A stretch of 64,000 nucleotides of DNA, from NCBI GenBank assembly GCA_965198225.1, contig CBDAOY010000004.1:128001-192000 (forward strand), in the 5' to 3' direction. Numbering within the stretch: position 1 is the first letter of the stretch; each line of letters begins with the position of its first letter. The notes under the pieces are model-generated. The model ran no database searches, had not been told where the DNA came from, and saw nothing but the letters and a program-made list of their open reading frames with translations. Shown in pieces: positions 13,869 through 29,246 of this stretch. The position numbers were made by a program, and so were the translations under genes. Source of the DNA: Terriglobia bacterium (GTDB lineage Bacteria; Acidobacteriota; Terriglobia; 20CM-2-55-15).

Positions 13869-15584
13869 CAGACTGTGTGAAAAGTCCAAGTCGTGGATCG
13901 CTGATCCGGCAACACCGAAGGGCAAGCACGATGACGGACCCGTGGCGACGCAGATCACTCGGGGCTGCCAGCCTTTTCGGTGGCGTGAGGTGTTGCTGTG
14001 ACTGGGAAACGCGGGATGGAGGCGGATTGTTGCGCCAAAAACGGGCGGATTACCCGGTCAAACCGCTGCGACGGCAATCAAGGCGGGAATTCCTACGAGG
14101 TTGATTGCGCGGCGCATGTTGTAGGCCAAGGCGGTGAGGCTGAACTCCCCGCGGACATTGCCGAGTCGGCGCGTCAGGAACGCGCCTTGGCCCATCCACT
14201 GCTTGATCGAACCGAAGGGATGCTCGACCGACTCCCGGCGACGATCCATCACCTCGGGCCGGGCGGCGAGACGGTTCGCCATGCGCTCCATCGTTGCTTC
14301 GTTCTCGAAGCGCGTGATGCGCCGATAGGTGTTCTTGGTACATCGTTCGCGTAGACCGCAGCCTCTGCATGCGGCGCGGTTGGCGTAACTGACAAGATAC
14401 GTGCCTGTGCGCGACTTACCGACGCTTCCGCGATACAACGGCACCAGGCGCTCACCAGCGGGGCACCGGTAGGTGTCCGTGGAGTCGTCGTATTGGAAAT
14501 CGGACTTCGGAAAGTGGCCACTGCGTCTGGCCGTGCTCCGGTCGGGCTTCGGAACGTAGGGCGTGATCCCGGCGGCTTCGCAGTCCTCAATGTCTTCGAT
14601 CTTGTAGTAGCCTCGGTCCGCGACCGCGTCGATCTCGTCGACAGCCAAGTTCTCCCGAGCCGCTGTGGCCGTCTCCGCGAGCAGACCGAGGTCCGAGACC
14701 TTGCTATGGACCTGCTGTTCGGCGATCAGGTTGTGCTCAGTGTCGACAGCGATCTGGACGTTGTAGCCGACTCCGACCCGTGTCCCGGAATGCATTGACC
14801 GGGAGTCCGGATCCGTAAGCGACAGCTGGGCTTCTCCGGTATCGTCCAGCGTCTGCCGATGCCCCTCCAAGGTCTCCTTTCTCTTACGGATCGATGCGAT
14901 CTTCTCCTGAAGATCCGCCACGGCAGCCGCTCTGCCGCCGGCATCATCCGCGTCGGCCTCGTTCACCTGGTCGAGGTAGCGGTCGAGTCGGTCGTCGATA
15001 CGCTGCAGGTCCGTCTTCAGCTTGGCCCGCGTGAAGTTGCGGTCCCGGTGGTTCACCGCCTTGATGCGCGTGCCGTCCACGGCGATCAACTCCCGCCCGT
15101 ACAGGTCGAGTTCCCGGCACAACCGCACGAACCGCCGAAACACCGCCCGGAACGCATGCCGATTGTCGCGCCGGAAGTCGGCGATCGTCTTGAAGTCGGG
15201 CTTCAGCTGGCGTAGCAGCCAGATCGCCTCGAGGTTGCGATGCGTCTCTGTCTCCAGCCTGCGGCTCGACCGAATACGATTCAGATACCCGTAGATATAC
15301 AGCTTCAGCAGATCCGCGGGATCGTAGCCTGGACGGCCCTTGTCGTTGGGCCGAACGCGCTGGAATCCAGCCGCCTCAAGGTCGAGACCGTCGACGAATG
15401 CATCAATGAAACGGACCGGGTTGTCCGGTCCCACGTAGTCGTCCACAGTATCGGGCAGAAGCAGAAGCTGGGAACGGTCTTCACCGGTGATATGTGCCAT
15501 GACACATTTTACCAACCGCCATGGGGAACCTGATGCCAGTTCACCGACTCCCGCCCGGCTGTCGCCGACTTTTCACACAGTCTG
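13869..15584 (-). mobile_element. IS1182-family insertion sequence, complete
   Basis: 18-bp IRs CAGACTGTGTGAAAAGTC / GACTTTTCACACAGTCTG enclose an intact transposase. Confidence 0.93.
14058..15500 (-). CDS. IS1182-family DDE transposase
   Basis: GRPGYDP..SSRRLE, PDFKTIADFR, AVDGTRIKA, TDPDSR, ADRGY, VEHPFG motifs. Confidence 0.93.
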   Translation of the reverse strand: MAHITGEDRSQLLLLPDTVDDYVGPDNPVRFIDAFVDGLDLEAAGFQRVRPNDKGRPGYDPADLLKLYIYGYLNRIRSSRRLETETHRNLEAIWLLRQLKPDFKTIADFRRDNRHAFRAVFRRFVRLCRELDLYGRELIAVDGTRIKAVNHRDRNFTRAKLKTDLQRIDDRLDRYLDQVNEADADDAGGRAAAVADLQEKIASIRKRKETLEGHRQTLDDTGEAQLSLTDPDSRSMHSGTRVGVGYNVQIAVDTEHNLIAEQQVHSKVSDLGLLAETATAARENLAVDEIDAVADRGYYKIEDIEDCEAAGITPYVPKPDRSTARRSGHFPKSDFQYDDSTDTYRCPAGERLVPLYRGSVGKSRTGTYLVSYANRAACRGCGLRERCTKNTYRRITRFENEATMERMANRLAARPEVMDRRRESVEHPFGSIKQWMGQGAFLTRRLGNVRGEFSLTALAYNMRRAINLVGIPALIAVAAV

Positions 15585-16455: not shown

Positions 16456-17034
16456 CTAGAACCCAAAAAAGATCCCAACGCTGGCCTCGAGAACGTTCAA
16501 AGTGTCATTCTCGATACCGCGTATGGAGTAGATGCGGACATCGAAGCGCAGGCCAGCAGGTGGCATCACCTCCAAATTCAACCCGCCTCCATAGTTGTAG
16601 CTGAACTTCGTTCCGAAACCGCCAAGCCCGCTGCCTCCCGCACGAATGAGACCCGCACCGGCCGTTGCGTAGGGCCGGAATAGAGGTGCTGGGAATTCCA
16701 CCCGCAGATTCGTACTGAAGAGAAAGGCGTTGCCGTCGCTGTCAATGAAATTCGGACTGTATGCGGCGGTGTACTCTAATCCCAGGGGCGCAGCAGTAGG
16801 ATAGAGCCGCACTCCGAAGATTCCAAAGTCCTTAGGGTCGATCTGAAAACCTGAAAGATCACCCGGGGAGCTCAGAGAAGGCACGCCGATGGCCTCGCCC
16901 ACACCGCCCACACCTGAACGCAGTGTGAGGGTGCCCGGATGCTGGAAGCCACCAAATACCGTCATGTCTTGAGCATGGAGCGTACCGGCAAAAACCATCC
17001 ACCCCGCAGTCAGAAATCCGAGTAAGTATTTCAT
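16456..17034 (-). CDS. Outer-membrane beta-barrel protein
   Basis: Signal peptide, RPYATAGAG and NYGGG strands, C-terminal Phe. Confidence 0.75.
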   Translation of the reverse strand: MKYLLGFLTAGWMVFAGTLHAQDMTVFGGFQHPGTLTLRSGVGGVGEAIGVPSLSSPGDLSGFQIDPKDFGIFGVRLYPTAAPLGLEYTAAYSPNFIDSDGNAFLFSTNLRVEFPAPLFRPYATAGAGLIRAGGSGLGGFGTKFSYNYGGGLNLEVMPPAGLRFDVRIYSIRGIENDTLNVLEASVGIFFGF

Positions 17035-17465
17035 TAGAAAACTATCAGCAGTTCCATGCCGGAGTCCAAACTCCCTTCGCCGCTACTCCTCTTCCGCCCA
17101 AACTGGCAGATTATGGCCCAGCGCACAATTCCAAGTGTGCTATCAAACATTGTAAGGGCAAGGTCTTTCAAGGTGCTGTCAAGTTAAGCAGGATCTGTAC
17201 TGCTCCTGATTTCTTGGACAGATAAGACACACCATAATCGAGATGGTTCACTTGATCGGCAAGGGTGAAGTGGCGCCGCGAGCGGCGCCGCGACACATCG
17301 GTCCGGCAGAGAATGATCCCTGTGGAACCGTCTCATAAAACGTTCGTTATTCTAGACACCTGGCCATGATCTTTCCGTCTCGAAGTCAATTGGCAAGCAA
17401 GCAGATCACACGGAAGGGGCGAGCGGAGGCTGTCACCAAGGAAGGCCTTGCCGCAACCCTGCTCC

Positions 17466-17543
17466 CAGCACGTCAGCCCGATCGAATGGGACCACGTCAT
17501 CCTCTACGGCCAGTACGTCCTCGATCGCGCCCTGGTCCGCTAA
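17466..17543 (+). pseudogene. Tn3-family transposase C-terminal fragment
   Basis: QHVSPIEWDHVILYGQYVLDRALVR* matches the HxSPxxWxHxxxxGxY TnpA terminus. Confidence 0.75.
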
Positions 17544-17779
17544 GGAACGGGTCCTTATGTTGTATTTCAACGTGCGCCGTGAGAAGGCGCCAATCCTCAG
17601 CGGGTGCGAATCCCGCCCGGCAACTGTCGCTCCAGTCGGTAGCAATCGGAGCGGATGGTGGAGGTAACAACATCGTCTGAAGCACTCCGATGACAAAGGG
17701 CCGCCTCGGGCGGCTCAGCGACCACACAGGCCACAACGCGAGTAAACGCCGAGCAGGCCTCGTATGTGGACGCCCCCCT

Positions 17780-18131
17780 GGTTGGCAAGCCTGACTTCGA
17801 ACCGAGGATCGGTGGCATTCAGGTCAGGTACGGTCGTATGTGCGGCCTCTTGATGCGGCACTTGCTGGCCGCGGGCCCGTATGGTGTTCGTGAGATCGGA
17901 TCCAAATCGAAACGACGGGCTCGATGGCCCTTCGAGGCCTACTGGGTTTTCCGATCCCGTCTTGTCGACCGTTTGCCCCTACCTTGTCCGACGTCCTGCT
18001 TGCACTCTCCAGTTGGAACCTCCGTGGCCCGTGTCCATCCGCCCAGGCGGCCAGCCGAACGATTTCCTCTCTCTTCTCCGCGTTTCTGATCTCGCCGACC
18101 CTTCTTCGCTCCACTGATCTGACTCGCAACC
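17780..18131 (-). ncRNA. Putative bridge/seekRNA region of the IS1111 element
   Basis: Non-coding end contains AGGCCTCG and CGTTTCGAT around a GGGC/GCCC hairpin, matching both target flanks. RNA boundaries unknown. Confidence 0.6.
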
Positions 18132-19178
18132 CTACGCTGCAGCCGCAACGGCCTTTGTCATTCCCCGTGCCCTGTAGCTCTCCTCCTTCACCGTCATGGC
18201 CCAGATGATGCGTGCCATCCTGTTGGCCAGAGCCACCGCAACCACCTTCCTCGGCTTTTCGTCCAGCATCCGGCCAAGCCAGGGATCGGTGACCTTCCTC
18301 CGCCGGATGGCACTCGAGATGACCGCCGTCGCCCCCAGGTACAGGAGCCTCCGGATGTCGCGCTGTCCCATCTTTGTGATCCCTCCCAGCCGTTGGCGGC
18401 CACCCGTCGAGGATTCACGCGGCGTGATCCCGACCCATGCCGCAAAGTCACGTCCATTACGGAAGCTCTCCATCGGTGGCGCGAACGCGTGCACCGCCAT
18501 TGCCGTGAGCTCTCCCACCCCTGGAATCGTCATCAGGCGCCCGAGCGCCTCATCTTCCCTCACGATGCGACGGATCTCCCGGTCCAGCTCATCGATCTCC
18601 GCATCCAGATCGTGGGTCCGCTCGATGAGGCGGCGTATGGCGGGAGGCACCAGCGCCGGGAAACACTCTTCACGCTCCGCGAACACCTCCTCCAGCCTCC
18701 CGACGTTGTGGGTCCCAAGCGGAGCGACGAGTCCAAACTCCGCGAGATGACCCCGCAGCGCGTTGATCGTCTGTGTCCGCTGGCGCACCAGCAGTGCCCG
18801 GGCCCGGAACACCACCGATCGTGCCTGCTCCTCCTCGGTCTTCACGGCCACGAACCGCATCGTCGGCCGCTGGGCCGCCTCGACGATCGCTCCCGCGTCG
18901 TTGGCGTCATTCTTCTGCCTCTTGACGTACGGCTTCACATACATCGGGGGAATCAGGCGGACCTCGTGACCGATCTCCTGGATCATCCGCCCCCAATGAT
19001 GGGCGCTGCCGCACACTTCCATCACGACCCGGCAGACAGGCTGCTTGGCGAGGAACTCGAGTAGCTTCGGGCGCGTGAGCTGCCTGCGCAGCACAGGCTC
19101 ACCGCTTGCCGTGGCTCCATGCAGTTGGAAGTACCTCTTTGAAATGTCGATGCCGATGATGGTGATCACCTTGCCCAT
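18132..19178 (-). CDS. IS110-family DEDD transposase/recombinase
   Basis: GIDISK, VMEVCG, KNDANDA, IPGVG, SSTGG motifs. Confidence 0.93.
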   Translation of the reverse strand: MGKVITIIGIDISKRYFQLHGATASGEPVLRRQLTRPKLLEFLAKQPVCRVVMEVCGSAHHWGRMIQEIGHEVRLIPPMYVKPYVKRQKNDANDAGAIVEAAQRPTMRFVAVKTEEEQARSVVFRARALLVRQRTQTINALRGHLAEFGLVAPLGTHNVGRLEEVFAEREECFPALVPPAIRRLIERTHDLDAEIDELDREIRRIVREDEALGRLMTIPGVGELTAMAVHAFAPPMESFRNGRDFAAWVGITPRESSTGGRQRLGGITKMGQRDIRRLLYLGATAVISSAIRRRKVTDPWLGRMLDEKPRKVVAVALANRMARIIWAMTVKEESYRARGMTKAVAAAA

Positions 19179-19577
19179 GTATCCCTCCCTCTATCGTGTT
19201 CTGAACGCACCCCTTGTGCGTTCTGCTGACCCGGCCCATTCTGCCGCCGGGGAGCGGGGGCGTCCACTCCATCGAAACGCACAATGCGGAAGCCGACCCG
19301 CCGTTGAAACGGGGAAGGCTGCCAGCGGTCGGGAAGCGAGCGACGCGAGCACCGACTGGTTCCGCCGGGGTATTGGGCGGTGGCATGTATGGAAGAGGGG
19401 ATTGGACGCAACACGGGAAGCCCTGCCGGTGGCGTGGCACGCGCCAACCGACAGCCCGCGAGGGTCAGGTTGGGCCGACAGGGTGGCGGAGAGGTCCGCA
19501 GTACCAAGAAAGCCGGGTAATGCCGCGTGGAGGGAAGGGACCTCAGTTCGAGAGCAGCGCATGACGGAGGAAGGGCC

Positions 19578-20399
19578 ATGAGGACTGGCGAGAGCCTAAC
19601 AGCCTCGGAGAGAGTTCAGCGACTCCAGACGGCGCTACATGTAGAAAGCGAAGGAAGCCCTGGGCTTCCGGTTCTACTCTCTGAGCGACAAGGTGTGGCG
19701 CGACGACGTGCTCGCAGTCGCCTGGCAGGCCGTGCGACGCAACGGCGGCGCGACACGGGGTGGACGGCGAGACGGTCGCGGACATCGATGCGTTCGAGGT
19801 GGACCGGTGGCTGGGAGCACTGGCGCGGGACCTGAAGGAAGGGACCTATCGGCCGCATGCGGTTCGGCAGGTTCTCATCCCGAAGAAGCAACGAGGGAAG
19901 TTCCGGCCGTTGGGCATTCCGTGTCTCCGGGATCGGGTGGTGCAGACGGCGGCGATGCTGGTGTTATCGCCGATCTTCGAAGCCGACCTGCAACCGGAGC
20001 AGTATGCGTACCGGCCGGGCCGAGACGCGCATGACGCAGTCAGGCGCGTGCATCGGCTGCTGACGACGGGCCACCGGGAGGTGGTGGACGCCGACCTGTC
20101 GGACTACTTCGGCCAGATTCCGCACGCGGACCTGATGAAGTCCATCGCCCGGCGTGTGAGCGACGGGCGGCTGTTGGGCTGGGTCAAGGCGTGGCTGGAG
20201 ATGGCGGTGGAAGAGGACGACGGGCGCGGCGGTCGCCGCCGCACGAACCGGGCGCGTCACGAGCGGAAGGGGACCCCGCAAGGGTCTCCGATCTCGCCGC
20301 TGTTCAGCAACATCTACATGCGGCGCTTCATTCTGGGCTGGAAGGTGCTGGGCTACGCCCGGCACTTCAAGGCGGAAATCGTCAACTACGCGGATGACT
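19578..20399 (+). pseudogene. Intron A reverse transcriptase/maturase, frameshifted and cut at YADD
   Basis: VQRLQTALH, RPLGIP..DRVVQ, DADLSDYF, GTPQGSPISP, NYADD; frameshifts near 19643 and 19755. Confidence 0.9.
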
Positions 20400-22281
20400 G
20401 TGCGCCACGACGGTGCGTAGAGGAGGCGGTCATGTAGACGCCGAATCGACACAGCCTTGCTGCACGAGAGATGAGGGCGGGCCCCTCGGACTCGGGGTGC
20501 AGGCCCAGGGTCCAAACCGCCGGATGCTGCTCGGACCAAACGGCCGGGGTGGTGAGCGAGACGGAAAAGGCGGGACAAACCCGTCAGGTGAGCGATGGGA
20601 AGACGAACGTGAGTGAACCGCTGATGACGTGTCGAAAGCGTAGGGACGCCATCGAAACCAAGCTCCAGTCGTTGGCCTGGGATGAAGCTCGGGAGGAGCC
20701 TGTTGACTGCCCGAGCGGTGGCCGGCATGAAGGCGGCGTGAGCCCATTGCAGGCTCTTGTGCGGAACGTGGGAACCTATCGCCTCGATGTTAAGGGAGAA
20801 ATCCAAGTGGAGGACCCACAAGGATGAGAATACCGATGCGAGGCGAAGGGGCGGATGGGCTTGTAGGAGCGAAGAAGCCTGGTAATGCGGGTGGAGCAAA
20901 GGGGCCCAACTCTCTGGCCAAGGACGCCGGTCAACCAGCGATGGGAGGAGCCGGTGTCTGAGGCAAAGCCTTATGTGATTCCAAAGCAACTTGTCTGGGA
21001 ATCGTACCAGCGGGTGAAGGCGAACCGCGGTGCAGCGGGCGTGGACGGTGAGTCGCTGGCGGCGTTGGAGAAGGACCTGAAGGGGAATCTCTACAAGGTC
21101 TGGAACCGGATGTCGTCGGGCTCGTACTTCCCGCCGCCCGTGCGGCTCGTTGAGATACCGAAGGATAACGGCGGCAAGCGCCCACTCGGTATTCCCACTG
21201 TTGCCGACAGAGTGGCGCAAACGGTCGTGAAGATGGTGTTCGAGCCCTTGGTGGAGCCGGTATTCCACGAGGACTCGTACGGCTATCGCCCCGGCCGGTC
21301 TGCGCTCGATGCGGTGGGAGTGGCGAGGAAGCGCTGCTGGGGCGCGGATTGGGTCATCGACCTGGACATCAAAGCCTTCTTTGATTCCATCCCGCATGAC
21401 CTCATTGAGCGCGCCGTGGCCCACCACACTGACCTTCCGTGGGTCCGTCTGTACGTTGCGCGGTGGCTTCGTGTCGCTGTGCAGCGGCCAGACGGGATCC
21501 TGGAGGAGCGGACGACGGGCACGCCGCAAGGCGGAGTCGTCAGTCCGCTGCTGGCCAACCTGTTGCTGCACTACGCGTTCGACCTCTGGATGCAAAGGAC
21601 CTTTCCGAGCGTCCAGTTCGAGCGGTATGCGGACGATGCCATCGTCCATTGCAGGAGCGAACGGCAGGCGCGAGCAGTATTGGAGGCCATTCGGGGTCGG
21701 TTCGAGCAGTGCGGTTTGGAGCTTCATCCTGTGAAGACCCGTATCGTTTACTGCAAGGACGACGACCGGCCTGGGGACTACGAACACGTCAAGTTCGACT
21801 TCCTCGGGTACACCTTCCAACCTCGGCGGGCGAAGAATCGCTGTTGGAAATTCTTCGTGAGCTTCCTACCGGCGATCAGCGCCAAGGCCGCCAAGAAGAT
21901 CCGGGCCACCATCCGCGAATGGCGGATGGCGTCCACCAGGAACAACCAGCGTCTGGAGGACTTGGCACGGCTCATCAACCCGTCGGTACGTGGCTGGATG
22001 AACTACTACGGACGGTTCTACCGGTCGAAGTGTGTTCAGGTCCTTCGCCATCTCAACGAGGCCCTCGCGGCATGGGCGCGATGGAAATACAAGCGGTTTC
22101 GGCGACGTGAGCGTGCGTCGATGCACTGGCTGGGGCGCATCGCGCGACGGGACAGGCAGCTGTTTGTCCTGTGGCAACTCGGCATCGTACCCGAGGCTGG
22201 AGAGTAGGAGCCGGATGAGGCGAGAGTTTCACGTCCGGTTCTGGGAGGGCCCGGGGGGGAAGTTCCCCCGGGCTACTCGAC
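20400..22281 (+). mobile_element. Group II intron B, complete, class D (RmInt1-like)
   Basis: GTGCGCC start; domain V GAGCCGGATGAGGCGAGAGTTTCACGTCCGGTTC; domain VI ending ACTCGAC. Confidence 0.9.
20955..22207 (+). CDS. ltrA: Group II intron reverse transcriptase/maturase without endonuclease domain
   Basis: VKANRGAAGVDG, LYKVWNRMSSGSYFPPPV, GTPQGGVVSP, RYADD, FDFLG, GWMNYYG. Confidence 0.92.
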
Positions 22282-22749
22282 GTGTGCCACGAGCACTGAC
22301 GGGCGCAAGTCGGGTCAGTGCGCAACTGTTTCACTGATGAGGGAGGGCCCCTCGGAGCCGGCGTGCAGGAGCCGGCTTCAAACCACCTTCGGTGGCTGTG
22401 GTTAAAAGCCATGGTCGTGAGCGCAGAAGGAAAAGGCCCGGGAAGAACCGGGTCAGGTGGCTGGCAAGAAGAGGACCGCAAGGGAATCACTGATGACGTG
22501 TCGAAAGCGTAGGGACGATGTCAGAACCGTGGGGAGTCATTACCGCGGGATCAGTTCAGACGAGAATCTGCTTACGGGCTGAGCGGCATCCGGCATAAAG
22601 GTGGCCTGAGCTTGTCGAGAGGCGGTGAAACGGAACGTGGGAACCTGAGATTCCGATGCTAACGGAGACGCCACAAGTGGAAGAACCACGAGGGCCAGAG
22701 TACGAACCATCCTGGCTCGCGGAGTCTCAGGGGCGGAATGGCCCGTAGT
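22282..22749 (+). mobile_element. Group II intron C, 5' fragment (class D-like)
   Basis: GTGTGCC start. Domain I is colinear with intron B (GATGAGGGAGGGCCCCTCGG, TGATGACGTGTCGAAAGCGTAGGGACG, GGAACGTGGGAACC). Stops in domain III. Confidence 0.8.
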
Positions 22750-23331
22750 GCGTGCCTGGCAGCACGCGTTTCCGGCGGGTTAAAGTCCCGCTCGGCCCGA
22801 GGCCACGGGTCGATATCCAACAAGTGGGGGTAATGCCTCACTGGCCGGAGTGTAGGCAGGTATGGCAAATGCCTAAACGGGCACGAAGGCGAAAGCCGGA
22901 CACGGACAAGGCAAAGCTGGAGCCACCTACGGAAACTTTGGAGGGCAGGGCGCCCACCGCGAGGTGGGGTCTGAAGGGCATGAGGAGAACCACCGGGTCG
23001 TAATCGACGGGAGCCATCCCGAGGATGAACCGGTCGGCCAAAGATGGGGAATGGTCGAGCCCGCACTATTGGGGCGAAGGCGCATTGGTTCCACCCCATC
23101 GCACCAAGGTGTGTGCGGGCGACACGGTGGGGAAGAGACGCGAGTGACCCAGGGAGGCCTGGTATCGTCCGAGCGGAAGGTAAGGTCGAGATGATGTGGC
23201 ACCCAAGGCAGACGAAAGGGCGGGCAACCGAGAAGACAAACATCGACCTAGAGCCCTGCGCGGTAGGTGCGGATATAAGCGAGAGCGAAATTCCGGCCGA
23301 CGCGGTGTCAGGAATCGGATCGGGGAATAGT
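22750..23331 (+). mobile_element. Group II intron D1, 5' fragment (582 bp)
   Basis: Nearly identical to 23332-23910 with scattered substitutions and a 3-bp indel. Confidence 0.8.
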
Positions 23332-24235
23332 GCGTGCCTGGCAGCACGCGTTTCCGGCGGGTTAAAGTCCCGCTCGGCCCGAGGCCACGGGTCGATATCC
23401 AACAAGTGGGGGTAATGCCTCACTGGCCGAAGTGTAGACAGGTAGTGCAGATGCCTAAACGGGCACGAAGGCGAAAGCCGGATACGGCCAAGGCAAAGCT
23501 GGAGCCAGCTACGGAAACTTTGGAGGGCAGGGCGCCCACCGCGAGGTGGGGTCTGAAGGGCATGAGGAGAACCACCGGGTCGTAATCGACGGGAGCCATC
23601 CCGAGGATGAACCGGTCGGCCAAAGATGGGGAATGGTCGAGCCCGCACTATTGGGGCGAAGGCGCATTGGTTCCACCCCATCGCACCAAGGTGTGTGCGG
23701 GCGACACGGTGGAGAAGAGACGCGAGTGACCCAGGGAGGCCTGGTATCGTCCGAGCGGAAGGTAAGGTCGAGATGATGTGGCACCCGCAGACGAAAGGGC
23801 GGGCAACCGAGAAGACAAACATCGACCTAGAGCCCTGCGCGGTAGGTGCGGATATAAGCGAGAGCGAAATTCCGGCCGACGCGGTGTCAGGAATCGGATC
23901 GGGGAATAGTACTCAGGAACGAGACGGCAAACATAAGGTCTCGGATCGTTGCTTCGAGCAGCGGCGCTGGCGGGTCCAAAAGGCCCGTTGGAGGGGGAAG
24001 TCCCCGTACTCAGTCGTGAATGTGCGAGCGATGGGAAACGCGGAGATATCGTGGAATTGGATAGTTCCCTTAGCGAAAGACCCAAACGCGGTACGAACGA
24101 AGCCGCCACCTGCCGCCACACAGCGAATTCCGAACGAGGAGCAACTGAGGAAAGCGGCTTGCGGGAAAACCGCACGAGCCGTTTGATTGAGCGGACGGTG
24201 GAAGGGCCGATCGGCCCGACCACTTTCGACTCTAC
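23332..24235 (+). mobile_element. Group II intron D2, complete and ORF-less (~904 nt)
   Basis: GCGTGCC start; EBS1-like ACTATT; domain V AAAGCGGCTTGCGGGAAAACCGCACGAGCCGTTTG; ends GACTCTAC; no RT ORF. Confidence 0.8.
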
Positions 24236-25771
24236 ACTCCGAGGTCGGGAGAGCCGATCACATGGGGAAGCGGCCAGCAGAAGTGGACTCGTTCTTGGGA
24301 AACATGAGCTCCATGCAACGGGAGGATACGGTCCTCTATGCAACGAGAGGAACAACCAGTCATGGAAACGAAACTGGAACGAATAGCGGCGAAAGCTCGG
24401 AGTGAGCCAAAGCTCCGGTTCACGTCACTGGCGCATCATGTCACCCGAGAGCGTGTGTGGAAGAACCTGTGTCAAGTGCCCCGCAACACGGCTCCCGGAT
24501 GTGATGGTCAGAGGGTACCGGAGGCGAAGGAGGAATTCGGAGTCTGGGTGGAGCCAATGCTCCAGTCTGTTCACCAGAAGGGATATCGCGCTCCGCCGAT
24601 TCGGCGGGTGTATATCCCCAAGCCCGGCAAGCAGGAGAAACGTCCCCTGGGCGTGCCCTGTGTTCAAGATCGGGCCCTTCAGCGCAGCGTGGCCGAGGTA
24701 TTGGTCGCCATCTACGAGCAGGACTTCTTGCCCTGTTCCTTTGGTGGCCGGCCTGGGCTGGGCGCCCACAATGCACTGGCAACCCTCCATGAGGTGATTT
24801 CCGGATGCAAGGTGAGTTGGGTGTTGGAGGCGGACTTGAAGAACTTTTTCGGGAGTTTAGACCATGGATGGCTACTCCGCTTTGTGGAGCATCGAGTCGG
24901 AGATCCGCGGATCATCAGTCTGATACGACGATGGTTAAAGGCGGGCGTTTTCGAAGACGGGGAATTGCATTCGAACGAAGAGGGAACCCCGCAAGGTGGG
25001 TCGATCAGCGTTCTGCTGAGCAATCTGTACCTGCATTATGTGCTTGACCTGTGGTTTGACCGGATGGTCCGGCCACGCCTGAAGGGTGAAGCGTATCTGG
25101 TGCGGTACATCGACGACTTTGTCGTGTGTTTCCAATATCGGGACGATGCGCTTCGTTTCCAGAACGTTCTGCGCAAGCGACTGGGAAAGTTTGGACTGGT
25201 TCCGGAGCCGACCAAGACGAAGCTCGTCGAATTCGGCCGCTATGCCCAGCGCGATGTCGTCCGGCGCGGGAGAAAACGTCCAGAGACGATCTATTTTCTG
25301 GGCATGACCCTGTACTGTACGCGTAATCGCAAAGGCAATTTTAGAGTGGGACTGCGAACAGAGAAGTCTCGACTTCGACGCAGTCTGGCTCATCTACGCG
25401 GCGTGATGAGGCGAATGCGTCACTTGCCGGTCCGGGAGCAAGTGCACAATCTGAACCGAGTCTTGCGCGGGCACTACGCCTACTATGGCATTGCCGGGAA
25501 CCTCCGGGCTCTGCAGCACGTCGCTCGGGCCGTGGAACGTTACTGGCGCCAAATGCTCAGCAGTCGTAGTCGTGCAGGCTTCGTCCGGTGGGAAGTATTC
25601 AACCGGATTCAGCTGCACTTTCCGTTACAGCGTCCCAAGTTGGCTCTCCGCTATCGGGAGTTCCAGTCTCTCGCTGTGCTGTAAATCCAATTCTGAAGAG
25701 CGCAGTGCGGGAAATCCGCACGCTGCGTTCTGTGGGAGCCGGAGGCGGGCAACTGCCTCCGGCCACCCGGT
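24236..25771 (+). mobile_element. Group II intron E, 3' part (domain III to end), tentatively class E-like
   Basis: Domain III half ACTCCGAGGTCGGGAGAGCCGATCACATGGGGAAG, RT ORF, domain V GAGCGCAGTGCGGGAAATCCGCACGCTGCGTTC, end CACCCGGT. Confidence 0.8.
24362..25684 (+). CDS. ltrA: Group II intron reverse transcriptase/maturase
   Basis: RFTSLAHH, RPLGVP..DRALQ, EADLKNFF, GTPQGGSIS, RYIDD, RGHYAYYG. Confidence 0.92.
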   Translation: METKLERIAAKARSEPKLRFTSLAHHVTRERVWKNLCQVPRNTAPGCDGQRVPEAKEEFGVWVEPMLQSVHQKGYRAPPIRRVYIPKPGKQEKRPLGVPCVQDRALQRSVAEVLVAIYEQDFLPCSFGGRPGLGAHNALATLHEVISGCKVSWVLEADLKNFFGSLDHGWLLRFVEHRVGDPRIISLIRRWLKAGVFEDGELHSNEEGTPQGGSISVLLSNLYLHYVLDLWFDRMVRPRLKGEAYLVRYIDDFVVCFQYRDDALRFQNVLRKRLGKFGLVPEPTKTKLVEFGRYAQRDVVRRGRKRPETIYFLGMTLYCTRNRKGNFRVGLRTEKSRLRRSLAHLRGVMRRMRHLPVREQVHNLNRVLRGHYAYYGIAGNLRALQHVARAVERYWRQMLSSRSRAGFVRWEVFNRIQLHFPLQRPKLALRYREFQSLAVL

Positions 25772-25880
25772 GCGACTGGAAACGAAGCCACGGCGAGGAG
25801 TGAGGCACCGGAATCGGCGAAAGCCACCGGCAACAGCTACCCCCTTTGCCTACCGCCACCGCGCCAGTCGTCGACTCTAC
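25772..25880 (+). mobile_element. Domain VI / 3' end of a further group II intron (possibly A)
   Basis: Long hairpin CGACTGG...CCAGTCG ending TCGACTCTAC. Confidence 0.65.
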
Positions 25881-28800
25881 AACGGATGGGTTGAAGTTCT
25901 GGGTACAGGGCGCGTTACAGGTTTTCTCGCATACTCGGAATCCAATGCCGGCGGTGTTGCCGTCGTTCCGGTCCAGAATCAACCCGGCCCGCGACTCCTA
26001 TTCGGGCACATCGCTGCGCGCGTTCCATGGTCGACCGGTATAGCGGTCCTGAACGCGACAGCGACGGACACAGTCGTCGAGTTTTTTGCCATCACACCCG
26101 GCGGCGCCTTGATGGGCGGTCCCGAAGAGTCACCGCTTGCCCGCGTCGAACTTCCCTCAGGAACCAAAATTGCCAAGCTCATCAATGAATTGATACCGAA
26201 CACAGAGGGCCTAGTGGCGGACGGGGGCTTCGTCTATGCCCGAACGACGAATGATGTCGAGATCTATGGAATCGAACTGTTTTTCCTCCGCAACCTCTTT
26301 GTCTTCTCCAACGTGTCTGCGGACATCAGCATTCCGTTCGAACCGCCCGTAAGAAACCTCCCGATGCCGATGGACGGGACGTTGACGCCGGGCGACCTGC
26401 TGGCGGGGACGATCGACGCGCCGGGCGAGGTCGACGTGGTGACCCTGGCTGGGCAGACCAACGACAGAATCGTGTTGACGTTGGTCGAGACGACGGACTG
26501 GGGCGGCTTCCTCGGGGCGAATGATGTGCAGGCGACGCTGTTTGCGCCGAGCGGCGCCGAGCTCGAGGTGTTCGATTCGGACAGCCAGCAGCAGTTCACG
26601 CTCGCGGAGACGGGCGTCTACGTCATCCAGGTGAATGCGAACAACCTGGTCAGCACGGGGTCGTACACGCTGGGGCTGGAGCGGCTCGACCCGGTGGGGC
26701 CGCTCGACGGGACCTTGACGCCGGGCGACCTGCTGGCGGGGGCGATCGACGCGCCGGGCGAGGTCGACGTGGTGACCCTGGCTGGGCAGACCAACGACAG
26801 AATCGTGTTGACGTTGGTCGAGACGACGGACTGGGGCGGCTTCCTCGGGACGAATGATGCGCAGGCGACGCTGTTTGCGCCGAGCGGCGCCGAGCTCGAG
26901 GTGTTCGAATCGGACAGCCAGCAGCAGTTCACGCTCGCGGAGACGGGCGTCTACGTCATCCAGGTGAATGCGAACAACCTGGTCAGCGCCGGGTCGTACA
27001 CCCTGGGCCTGGAGCGGCTCCACCCGTTGGGGCCGCTTGACGGGACGTTGACGCCGGGCAACCTGCTGGCGGGGGCGATCGACGCGCCGGGCAAGGTCGA
27101 CGTGGTGACCCTGGCTGGGCAGACCAACGACAGAATCGTGTTGACGTTGGTCGAGACGACGAACTGGGGCGGCTCCTTCGGGGCGAATGATGTGCAGGTG
27201 ACGCTGTTTGCGCCGAGCGGTGCCGAGCTGGGGGTGTTCGATTCGGACAGCCAGCAGCAGTTCACGCTCGCGGAGTCAGGCGTCTACGTCATCCAGGTGA
27301 ACGCGAACAACCTGGTCAGCATCGGGTCGTACGCCGTGGGGCTGGAGCGGCTCCACCCGGTGGGGCCGCTGGACGGGACGTTGACGGTGGGCGACCTGCT
27401 GGCGGGGGCGATCGACGCGCCGGGCGAGGTCGACGTGGTGACCCTGACTGGGCAGACCAACGACATAATCGTGGTGACGTTGGTCGAGACAGGGGCGAAT
27501 GATGTGCATGCGAGGCTGATTGCGCCGAGCGGCGCGGAGCTCGGGGTGTTCGCGGACGTCGGGCAGCAGTTCACGCTCGGGGAGACGGGCGTCTACATCA
27601 TCCAGGTGAGCACGAACGACCTGATCAGCACGGGGTCGTACACCCTGGGGCTGGAGCGGCTCGACGCGGCCTGTAGCGCAAGCCGGCCTTGCTTTACCGA
27701 CGTGACCGCGCAGGCCGGCCTCCTTCAAGGCCCGCCGCCGGATGGCCTGCCGTTCGCCCAGGTGACCGACGTCATGACCGGAGCCGCCGCCGCCGGGGAC
27801 ATTGATAATGACGGCAACGTAGATTTGTATGTATCCCGAATCGATGCCCTCGATTCACTCTATCGAAACAAAGGCGATGGAACGTTCGAGGACATTGCGA
27901 CCGCTTCCGGTATCAATCGCGGCAGCAATTCCAACGGGGCCGCCTTCGGCGACATCGACAACGATGGCGACCTGGACTTATACGTAACCGCCGTGTCGTC
28001 CGCCGAACGAGGCACCCAAACTAGATTCTATTTGTATGTCAATGACGGCCGTGGCAATTTCAGTGAAGAAGCGATTAGTCGCGGTGCGGCGATTGCAGGC
28101 GCCGATGCACATCAGGGCTGGAGCGTGGCGTTCGGGGACTACGACAGTGACGGATACTTGGACATCCACGTCTGCGAATGGCGACTGGACTCCTTGAATT
28201 CCAGCGCTGCGCTGTCCAATTCGAGGCTTCTGCGGAACCTCGGCAGCGCTAATCCCGGAGCGTTTGAGGACGTCACAGTAGAGGCAGGTGTCGCTCTCGA
28301 CGCGGTCCAGGGCAAGTTGCGCGATCCGCAAAGAGGAACGTTCAGTTTCAGCTCAAACATCGTCGACATGGACGGCGACAGCCATCCAGACCTGATTATC
28401 GCGGCAGATTTCGGCGAGAGCCGCCTGTTCTGGAACAACGGGGACGGAACATTCACGGACGGCACCGCAGCCGCGGGAGTCGGTCTCGATGAGAACGGCA
28501 TGGGCTCGGCCGTCGGCGATATCAACGGTGATGGTCTCCTGGATTGGTTTGTCACGTCGATCTCAGGAGGCCTTTTACCTCCGTACACCGGTAACTTCAT
28601 GTACCTCAACAACGGCGATCGGACCTTCACTGACTATACCGAGGCGGCCGGCGTGCGGGACGGGTTCTGGGGATGGGGCGCGACTTTCCTGGACTATGAC
28701 AACGACGGCGACCTGGATCTGACGATGGTGAACGGGTTTCCGAACTCTGTGTTCAGCCTGATCTCGTGTTGCAATCCGATGCGGTTTTGGGAAAACGATG

Positions 28801-29246
28801 GGTCGGGACACTTCACGGAGATATCTCTGTCGGTAGGACTGCTTGATGCGCGACAGGGCAAGGGTATTTTGAGCTTCGATTACGACAACGACGGTGACCT
28901 TGATCTATTCGTGACGAACAATGCCAGTACGCCTGTGCTCTACAACAACGACGGTACAAACTCCGGGGACTGGCTGCGGATTGAGTTCGACCGAGAGGAG
29001 CCGTTTATTGGTGCGCGCATTGTCGTAACGGCGGAAGTTGACGGGGCCGAACAGCTACGTGTCGTGAACGCCGGCAATAACTACCTGAGCCAGAATGAGG
29101 TCACCGCGCACTTCGGCCTCGGTGTCGGCGCCCTGCCCGTGCATCACGTCAAGGTGACAATGCCTTCGGGCGAGATACGGGAGTTTCGTGACGTGCCGAG
29201 AAACACGACCTTGACGGTGCGTGCTCAAGAGCCCGGACTTCAGTAG
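25881..29246 (+). pseudogene. Large secreted protein (PPC-like repeats + FG-GAP/VCBS + ASPIC/UnbV, CRTAC1-like), 5'-truncated at the intron junction
   Basis: Repeated D[I/Y]DNDGDLDL motifs and YLSQN..AHFGLG. The reading frame has no native start and begins at the intron 3' end. Confidence 0.8.
26373..27665 (+). repeat. Four tandem intragenic 333-bp (111-aa) repeats
   Basis: Units start at 26373, 26706, 27039 and 27372 (DGTLTPGDLLAG...YTLGLERL); the last is shorter. Confidence 0.92.

Follow-up and report, generated by a model that had tools for sequence, protein, structure and literature searches.

Arrays of group II introns inserted into one another have been described before, and any new case has to be judged against them. 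According to a review (Zimmerly and Semper 2015, PMC4424553), the arrays of Methanosarcina acetivorans have up to five nested introns; homing to specific sites in introns has occurred there repeatedly and is counterbalanced by homologous recombination, which causes deletions. By the title of Dai and Zimmerly (2003), these introns home into related intron open reading frames (ORFs). In Thermosynechococcus elongatus, ORF-less introns occupy one conserved domain IV site of their relatives and are served by a reverse transcriptase (RT) in trans, one intron carries an insertion sequence (IS), and proliferation by homing into mobile elements is discussed (Mohr et al. 2010, PMC2882425). Finally, the mitochondrial intron cox1i1149g2 of Lycopodiaceae is described as having invaded its own domain IV (Zumkeller et al. 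2020, PMC7049729). Here we describe a nested stack of group II introns in a Terriglobia (Acidobacteriota) genome (6.4 Mb in 9 contigs, denoted G000), located at positions 17572-25880 of the window, i.e. the whole 64,000-nt stretch that was analysed (contig C4:128001-192000). Since the nested arrays of M. acetivorans are already on record, the stack is not a new kind of structure but a new bacterial example of a known one, and the suggestion of an unusual depth, in the earlier note made from the letters of this DNA, is the weaker part of that note.

The likeness to M. acetivorans extends to the nesting itself, the absence of a coding exon around the array, the mixture of ORF-less and RT-encoding introns, and the combination of site-specific homing into introns with recombinational deletion, which is probable in the present case (PMC4424553). 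Unlike that system, the host here is a bacterium, three unrelated intron lineages use three sites (the YADD codons of the RT gene, the domain III/IV junction and the 5' strand of domain VI), and an IS110-family element uses a fourth. The T. elongatus case resembles ours in having ORF-less derivatives of ORF-containing introns inside introns and an IS in one intron; there, however, the inner and outer introns are close relatives, nested one level deep, at a site between two ORF ATGs (PMC2882425), whereas the ORF-less intron called D below has at least 9 intron-like hosts, including itself, and the nesting reaches four levels. Like cox1i1149g2, D inserts into itself, at AUAGU^A (the caret marks the insertion point throughout), but the Lycopodiaceae intron is organellar, with degenerate, non-splicing 'zombie' inner copies (PMC7049729), whereas inner and outer D are 98-100% identical, at 4 loci.

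The region consists of a single outer group II intron, A, whose two termini are both preserved and which carries nested elements; in total, it contains six intron copies of five families (A, B, C, D and G/E) and one IS, and lies at an intergenic site. We consider it highly probable that this arrangement is a site-specific pile-up of selfish elements inside A that was trimmed by recombination. The boundaries were set by tiling the region with reference elements from other copies in the genome; EBS and IBS denote the exon-binding and intron-binding sites, and coordinates within an element follow its name after a colon.

17565..17571, + strand: IBS1 UUUCAAC of A, the end of the 5' exon, complementary to GUUGAAA at 19303-19309
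17572..17762, + strand: A:1-191, the 5' end GUGCG and the start of domain I; 100% identical to the reference A; RF02003, 82.8 bits (17598-17741)
17763..19271, - strand: IS110-family IS of 1509 nt, identified by Pfam; 3 copies at the same A position
19272..20399, + strand: A:189-1314, the rest of domains I-III, domain IVa and the RT up to YADD; 99.0% identical to the reference A
20386..20399, + strand: target of B and C in A, namely IBS2 CUACGC (20386-20391), GG, and IBS1 AUGACU (20394-20399)
20400..22281, + strand: intron B, complete, 1882 nt; RF01999, RF00029, RVT_1, GIIM
22282..22749, + strand: intron C, only the 5' 468 nt, domains I-III; RF01999
22750..23331, + strand: D1, i.e. D:1-579, the outer copy; 97.9% identical to D2
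23332..24235, + strand: D2, i.e. D:1-904, complete and ORF-less, delimited by empty versus occupied sites
24236..25771, + strand: the 3' part of G/E (E), G/E:402-1937, 1536 nt; RVT_1, GIIM, RF00029
25772..25880, + strand: A:1886-1994, 109 nt, domain VI and the 3' end ..CGACUCUAC; 100% identical to C6:6067-5959

Each of the seven internal junctions coincides exactly with an element end that is seen in independent copies with other flanks, so their positions are not due to chance, and the proposal that every junction is an intron end is borne out by termini fixed independently. All segments of the earlier note were recovered by Rfam, Pfam and tiling, in the same places and order; the reading as stacked introns plus an IS holds, and the count of 6-7 introns has to give way to the one above. 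Group II introns, retroelements made up of a ribozyme and an RT, are marked by a domain V hairpin with a 2-nt bulge, by a domain VI behind it with a bulged A close to the 3' end, and by an RT ORF with a maturase (X) domain in domain IV; typically they run from GUGYG to AY. The group II identity had likewise been called correctly: the Rfam matches, all on the + strand between 17598 and 25771, comprise three to the D1-D4 models (in A, B and C; not to be confused with the intron copies D1 and D2) and two to domain V/VI (in B and E), the cut-offs being 40 bits for RF00029 and 32 bits for RF02001. In Pfam, the minus strand yields a transposase of the IS110 family; there are also one RT cut after profile position 156 and two full RT-maturase ORFs. 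The whole genome contains 31 maturase-domain and 32 domain V matches by profile scan, and, by BLAST against it, every piece of the region except the 5' part of B belongs to a multi-copy family at 97-100% identity, the many intron copies that are 98-100% identical suggesting recent mobility. The RTs of A, B, E, the full-length form of D and a further family, K, are 29-37% identical pairwise.

The outer intron is recognised from its intact copy at C6:7952-5959, which is 1994 nt long, starts with GUGCG, ends with AC, and runs from domain V through GAUGAGCG into a domain VI of 109 nt. The 109 nt that close the region are this very 3' end, which is why the whole 8.3 kb must be regarded as bracketed by A; they had previously been taken for domain VI of another intron, and that assignment is withdrawn. 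Attribution of this tail to G/E or to a seventh intron was also rejected, since it continues the intact A and two G/E copies end without it, and a candidate extra intron, 'F', at C6:839190-840160 proved to be the rest of A followed by the 5' part of G/E. The window copy of A is devoid of A:1315-1885, i.e. the C-terminus of the RT and domain V. Its RT frame is split between ORFs 19527-19835 and 19760-20437, which lie in different frames, and the latter covers only positions 1-156 of the 205 in the RVT_1 profile, ending at YADD. Domain V/VI of the intact copies scores 38.1 bits with RF00029, slightly below the cut-off; in the window copy domain V is gone. Ten A-type 3' ends are found in the genome, eight preceded by the 3' end of E and two by the domain V of A itself.

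The site occupied by A is typical of this family. EBS1 of A (GUUGAAA, 19303-19309) pairs with IBS1 UUUCAAC, the upstream sequence ..TTTCAA(C/T)^ is common to five A copies, and empty A sites of the form ..TGTATTTCAAC^ACCCATATGGGCGC are present in genome G020, one of the 39 relatives that were compared with G000 (40 genomes altogether, of which G001-G003 belong to the same genus). A repeat of approximately 230 nt lies directly upstream of A (17338-17571) and ends with ..CCTTATGTTGTATTTCAAC, the A homing site; it has an 86-90% match in G020 and partial ones at C5:825305-825141 and C5:510994-511060, and one of its frames ends with ..ILYGQYVLDRALVR and a stop codon. The flank of A has no usable match in G001-G003 and hence no empty version of the window locus is found there.

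One of the invaders of A is G/E. The 3' part present in the window contains domain IV with an RT ORF of 448 aa at 24338-25684 (RVT_1, 5e-29; GIIM, 7.9e-05, at the cut-off) and a domain V/VI at 25696-25771 (RF00029, 47.1 bits), and ends with ..CCCGGU. The missing 5' part, 401 nt (UUGCGCC...GAUAGU), is found at six loci of the genome and D always follows it, so the search for missing halves that the earlier note had proposed succeeded for this element; the two parts add up to 1937 nt (401 + 1536), in agreement with the 1936-1945 nt of 53 of 56 relatives. The insertion site is 8 nt after domain V of A, at GAUGAGCG^ (GATGAGCG^), and is occupied in four of the six A copies and empty in two. In two other contexts of this genome, G/E follows upstream sequence ending GAGCG^, which matches its EBS1, CGCUC, and in G020 its host is a different intron, of C-like type, whose domains V and VI it separates.

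This placement recurs outside the present genome. The best 80 of at least 505 E-type RT loci in genome_contigs (loci L028-L107) come from Acidobacteriota, several classes of Pseudomonadota, Desulfobacterota and others. Of the 64 loci among them that have a placed 5' end and enough flank, 47 have an upstream hairpin of domain V architecture, which ends at a distance of 8 nt in 41 cases and of 9 nt in 6; there are 42 distinct hairpins, against a background of 103 in 16000 random windows; this count uses a relaxed descriptor (R-C at triad positions 2-3), and the strict one, which admits the AGC-type triad only, gives 30/64. Pairing like that of a domain VI stem, between the five bases directly before the intron and the flank behind it, is seen in 44/56 loci compared to 301/1120 controls. 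EBS1 and IBS1 are paired at 5 of 5 positions in 46 of 62 loci (shuffled mean 14.9, maximum 26), and they covary, as in GCGGG with CCCGU and GGAGG with CCUCC. All 20 loci scanned match RF02005. The termini are peculiar as well. Group II introns have a contact between their first and penultimate nucleotides, and in G/E (UUGYG...GGU) the first base is U instead of G and the penultimate one G instead of A: among the 69 relatives with a placed 5' end, all show this start (UUGCGCC in 51, UUGUGCC in 18), and 69/74 end with CCCGGU. Such conservation marks these non-canonical termini as a lineage trait and not damage, and they may represent a natural covariation of the contact.

The D lineage uses another fixed point, RUAGU^A at the domain III/IV junction, just before domain IVa, where its EBS1, ACUAU, matches AUAGU. 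The complete copy D2 starts with GCGUG, has EBS1 at 23647-23651, ends with CUCUAC and forms a mobile unit of 904 nt; its domain V/VI (approximately 24152-24235) folds at -46.4 kcal/mol (z -5.97), and its own target, AUAGU^A at 23906-23910, is unoccupied, whereas D1 ends in this same target. There are 20 D 5' ends in 10 contexts of the genome, nine of the contexts being intron-like and ending in (A/G)TA(G/A)T. Empty and occupied sites can be set against each other in four cases, which include host family K, with seven empty copies (GGTCATAGT^AGCCCGG) and one occupied; the self-target AAUAGU^ACUCAGG versus four D-in-D junctions; and one ectopic D copy, for which a paralogous gene provides the empty site. 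These comparisons put the start of D two bases after the GT that had been picked by eye, at GCGUG, and the designation of D2 as complete stands in so far as it is a complete, ORF-less intron, the RT ORF at 24338-25684 belonging to E. Two candidates were rejected on the way: D as a GUGCG intron with an RT ORF at 23330-25771 (many copies end at 24235 with a domain V/VI of their own, and the 5' end is two bases later), and a microhomology collapse that would explain a 'lost GT' of D (relatives start with GUGUG directly after ..AGU).

Complete D-in-D twintrons are present at C6:840163-841975, C5:64012-62160 and G020:C24, and ORF-bearing relatives, with an RT ORF of about 475 aa, at C6:345941-343788 and C5:503866-501714. 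The sequence of D aligns with that of the full-length form before and after an ORF segment of about 1250 nt (23327-24126 corresponding to C6:345946-345146, and 24129-24238 to C6:343894-343785); by this alignment, D is an ORF deletion derivative of an ORF-bearing intron in the same genome, presumably mobilised in trans by the RT of the full-length form. Among the 40 genomes, D at 98-100% identity is confined to this one and G020, with no usable match in the congeneric G001-G003. By its label, G020 belongs to a different genus within this family, yet its D, D-in-D and G/E are 99-100% identical to those of the present genome (G020:C24, G020:C9; L019, L021), which suggests either recent horizontal spread or a kinship closer than the labels. 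In the best 80 of 142 loci of D relatives in metagenome_contigs, the 5' flank ends with RTAGT in 42/59 loci (50 distinct contexts), the intron starts with GUGUG in 53/64, and the 3' exon begins with A in 67/68.

Introns B and C are both placed after GAT GAC T, the YADD codons in the RT gene of A. B starts with GUGCG, ends with AC, matches RF01999 (92.3 bits, 20473-20589) and RF00029 (59.2 bits, 22206-22281), and encodes an RT of 440 aa (20885-22207; RVT_1, 2.1e-40; GIIM, 3.9e-14); its 5' end has no second match in the genome. C starts with GUGUG, matches RF01999 (106.6 bits, 22339-22458) and breaks off at GUAGU, the target of D. The domains I of B and C are 69-73% identical and have their EBS at homologous positions: EBS2 is GCGUAG in both (20638-20643 in B, 22507-22512 in C), and EBS1 is AGUCGU (20667-20672) in B and AGUCAU (22535-22540, in a hairpin loop by folding) in C, complementary to AUGACU and CUACGC of A. 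In a C-like intron that is inserted elsewhere, after ..GATATCA^, the equivalent loop reads GUGAUGU. Seven A copies retain the YADD site, one occupied and six empty (..TAC GCG GAT GAC T^TCGCGG), with identical flanks. The first base of C abuts the last base of B, and in a contig of sequencing run X17, with 27 letters on its shorter side, 20399 is directly followed by 22282, so that precisely B (1882 nt) is absent while C is there; it appears from this arrangement that B would have homed later to the 5' exon already used by C, and in front of the resident C. The sole other copy of C in the genome is at C5:889501, and the 3' part of C is found only in G020, where contig G020:C9 retains it behind C and D. 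Ahead of C, that contig has copies of a B-like intron in tandem, each truncated at the 5' end.

The fourth niche is domain I of A. The transposase ORF (18132-19178, minus strand) matches PF01548 DEDD_Tnp_IS110 (2.9e-15) and PF02371 Transposase_20 (1.2e-21); the element has 12-bp subterminal inverted repeats, GTGGACGCCCCC and GGGGGCGTCCAC, TCG at both sides, and 369 nt after the transposase stop codon versus 93 nt before the start codon. All three genomic copies have the same position in domain I of A, the same orientation and an identical left junction, and the IS-free form of A is present in all four runs compared (X15, X17, X19 and X1, each as short Logan contigs). Members of the IS1111 subgroup of the IS110 family are marked by subterminal inverted repeats, a long non-coding part 3' of the transposase gene and a sequence-specific target, and they target conserved parts of other mobile elements. 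By its sequence features, the IS in A is of the IS110 family with an IS1111-like layout: the likeness to this subgroup would lie in the DEDD and Transposase_20 domains, the subterminal inverted repeats, the one orientation at an exact site and the location of the target in a mobile element, and the difference in the use of a group II intron, at its domain I, as the target. Two other copies of A are interrupted at position 433/434 by a further IS with a comparable layout (1455 nt, subterminal repeats GGACTCCTCC and GGAGGAGTCC; C5:609820-608366 and C5:746311-744857), the window A being uninterrupted there; two more identical copies are at C5:840100-838646 and C4:355363-356817. Thus, the claim that each invader uses a different part of a host intron was well founded, the parts being domain I, the YADD codons, the domain III/IV junction and the stretch after domain V.

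Could recombination or tandem duplication alone, illegitimate or homologous, have built the stack, with no site-specific insertion of introns into introns? The genome does contain internal deletions of A and G/E at C6:839045/839044 and C5:817200, and odd duplications at C4:97570/97569. Such an origin predicts scattered breakpoints and no EBS/IBS match; both predictions were tested and both failed, since the breakpoints are full intron termini, clean pairs of empty and occupied sites tile exactly, EBS1 and IBS1 covary over 62 loci in other genomes, and the insertion position is fixed within 1 nt relative to the host domain V. We therefore regard recombination alone as extremely improbable.

Recombination has, however, left its mark on the pile-up. 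The missing segments are bounded by D copies and together equal exactly the loss from one D-D crossover, and an undeleted nest, A{G/E{D{D}}}, with all halves and four nesting levels, is preserved at C6:838810-843620; the explanation of the missing halves by recombination between repeated copies, offered previously, is thus supported, with the crossover itself remaining a reconstruction. On this basis, the history of the locus, whose order we infer, can be envisaged as follows. A would have retrohomed to the place where it is commonly found, at which a short repeat ends (IBS1 UUUCAAC), and would have become a landing pad because other elements base-pair with conserved features of group II introns. 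The IS110-family element would have entered domain I of A; C, and later its relative B, would have reverse-spliced after the YADD codons of the A RT, using EBS1/EBS2 with AUGACU and CUACGC; G/E would have entered 8 nt after domain V of A, in the 5' strand of domain VI (EBS1 CGCUC with GAGCG); and D would have entered three hosts (C, G/E and D itself), in each at RUAGU^A where domains III and IV meet. A single homologous crossover would then have joined the inner copy of a D{D} lodged in C to the D copy lodged in G/E and deleted the 3' part of C, D:580-904 of the outer D, A:1315-1885 and G/E:1-401. The outer A and C would now be dead, whereas B, D2 and the RT of E may remain active.

The order C 5' part, D, E 3' part recurs at C5:889501-892399, within a second deleted copy (C5:888811-892508) that has no extra D1 and reads B, C 5' part, D, E 3' part and domain VI of A, followed by a different A-type 3' exon. 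This second site, with the 3' flank ACGAATGTGGGCGC, raises the alternative that the composite is still mobile as a unit, the domain V of E (25698-25731) serving the outer ribozyme so that the whole stack reverse-splices. The domains V of A and E are indeed alike in sequence and shape, and 5'-truncated copies ending at the A 3' end exist at C9:18872-19280 and C2:42569-42702. Yet the 5' side of the second copy is a kinase-like ORF and not a 5' exon of A, so that it resembles the product of a subsequent rearrangement, or of gene conversion among copies of A; the truncated copies could come from A copies that retain domain V; the C9 and C5 copies have 23 nt of 3' flank in common; and an IS and a broken C lie inside the ribozyme core. 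Mobility of the composite is accordingly considered quite improbable. The second copy starts inside B, at position 1193, fused to an ORF ending with ..FEILSLLGRGG (C5:888600-888811); this ending resembles the glycine loop of Ser/Thr kinases, so a host gene appears truncated there.

Several observations weigh against the site-specific pile-up and should be considered together. Some concern the structural assignments. In the window, D misses the Rfam cut-offs (24.5-24.9 bits with RF02001, no match to RF00029), a sister copy reaching 33.4 bits with RF00029; of the G/E relatives, 17/64 loci fail the domain V descriptor, and the upstream host has a D1-D4 Rfam match in only 9 of the 20 loci scanned. 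The 3' half of C, the other piece that was to be looked for, is absent from this genome by nhmmer, and a homologue of C in genome G015 occupies a non-intron site. B and C are found in one A copy only, so that the evidence for YADD targeting consists of one site plus complementarity, and the proposed EBS1 of B has no clean hairpin loop in the minimum free energy fold. As for splicing, none of the RNA runs contained the region.

The remaining objections concern continuity, and they are also what would be expected of an assembly chimera, in which repeated intron copies were mis-joined and the stack is not one molecule. No contig of the four runs bridges any junction with at least 31 letters on both sides, the bridges having 19 and 27 letters (A to B), 29 and 30 (B to C), 23 (C to D) and 22 (D to E). 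The D1 variant (22853-23139) has a depth of 0.23, 0 and 1.09 in X15, X17 and X19, i.e. almost none, although these runs carry B at 100% identity; X1 has the D1 variant, but its depth over B is nil in two bins (21131-21704). No run thus covers both, and the whole stack is present in no single run; the samples seem to carry different versions of the stack. Moreover, the families other than the 5' half of B are multi-copy at 97-100% identity. A chimera would nevertheless hardly join repeats where they are joined here, exactly at intron ends and target sites instead of arbitrary repeat points. The same junction types occur at other loci with different flanks and in the independently assembled G020; the junction words of A to B, B to C, C to D and D to E are found, with 0-4 differences, in contigs from runs of three studies; and the resolution of many near-identical 2-kb repeats in 9 contigs suggests a long-read assembly. 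Taken together, these data make a chimera highly improbable, and the site-specific pile-up inside A remains the preferred explanation.

Mobile elements are abundant around the stack. A DDE transposase ORF of 485 aa (14058-15515, minus strand; DUF772, DDE_Tnp_1_6 and DDE_Tnp_1) lies 2 kb before it, and an outer-membrane beta-barrel ORF is found at 16456-17034. Downstream, a 1253-aa ORF listed from 25485 encodes an FG-GAP / ASPIC-UnbV repeat protein (feature 25881-29246); as listed, it crosses the end of the stack, so that its true start must be after 25880. It contains 333-nt tandem DNA repeats (26366-26998), with more copies downstream. No sign of a benefit to the host cell was seen in this analysis.

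What does the stack add to the known arrays? As a bacterial counterpart of the archaeal ones, it confirms the model of homing into introns followed by trimming through recombination; the added value is that, for at least two lineages, insertion into introns looks regular, at exact, structure-defined sites, and not occasional. A full-text literature search, beyond the reach of which older key work lies, returned no description of lineages for which either the domain V/VI linker or the domain III/IV junction is the homing site. It is tempting to go one step further and to propose, tentatively and with slightly more doubt than conviction, that there are 'hyper-parasitic' group II intron lineages, spread across phyla, that normally home to conserved structural parts of other introns. 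G/E (RF02005-type, about 1937 nt) would be directed to the 5' strand of the host domain VI, with its EBS1 co-varying with the host, and the D lineage to the domain III/IV junction, at RUAGU^A; these two lineages, the locally retargeted YADD invaders and the IS in domain I would divide the host intron into niches. One pipeline excludes twintrons and other multi-intron sequences, 21/513 (PMC4028801), and, if the proposal is true, surveys that discard multi-intron loci overlook these lineages. G/E would then be a natural system in which the inner intron must exit before the branch site of the host can form, and its U1/G(n-1) termini would be a natural variant of the intron-boundary interaction. 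Under the same proviso, each new intron copy would make new landing sites for such invaders.

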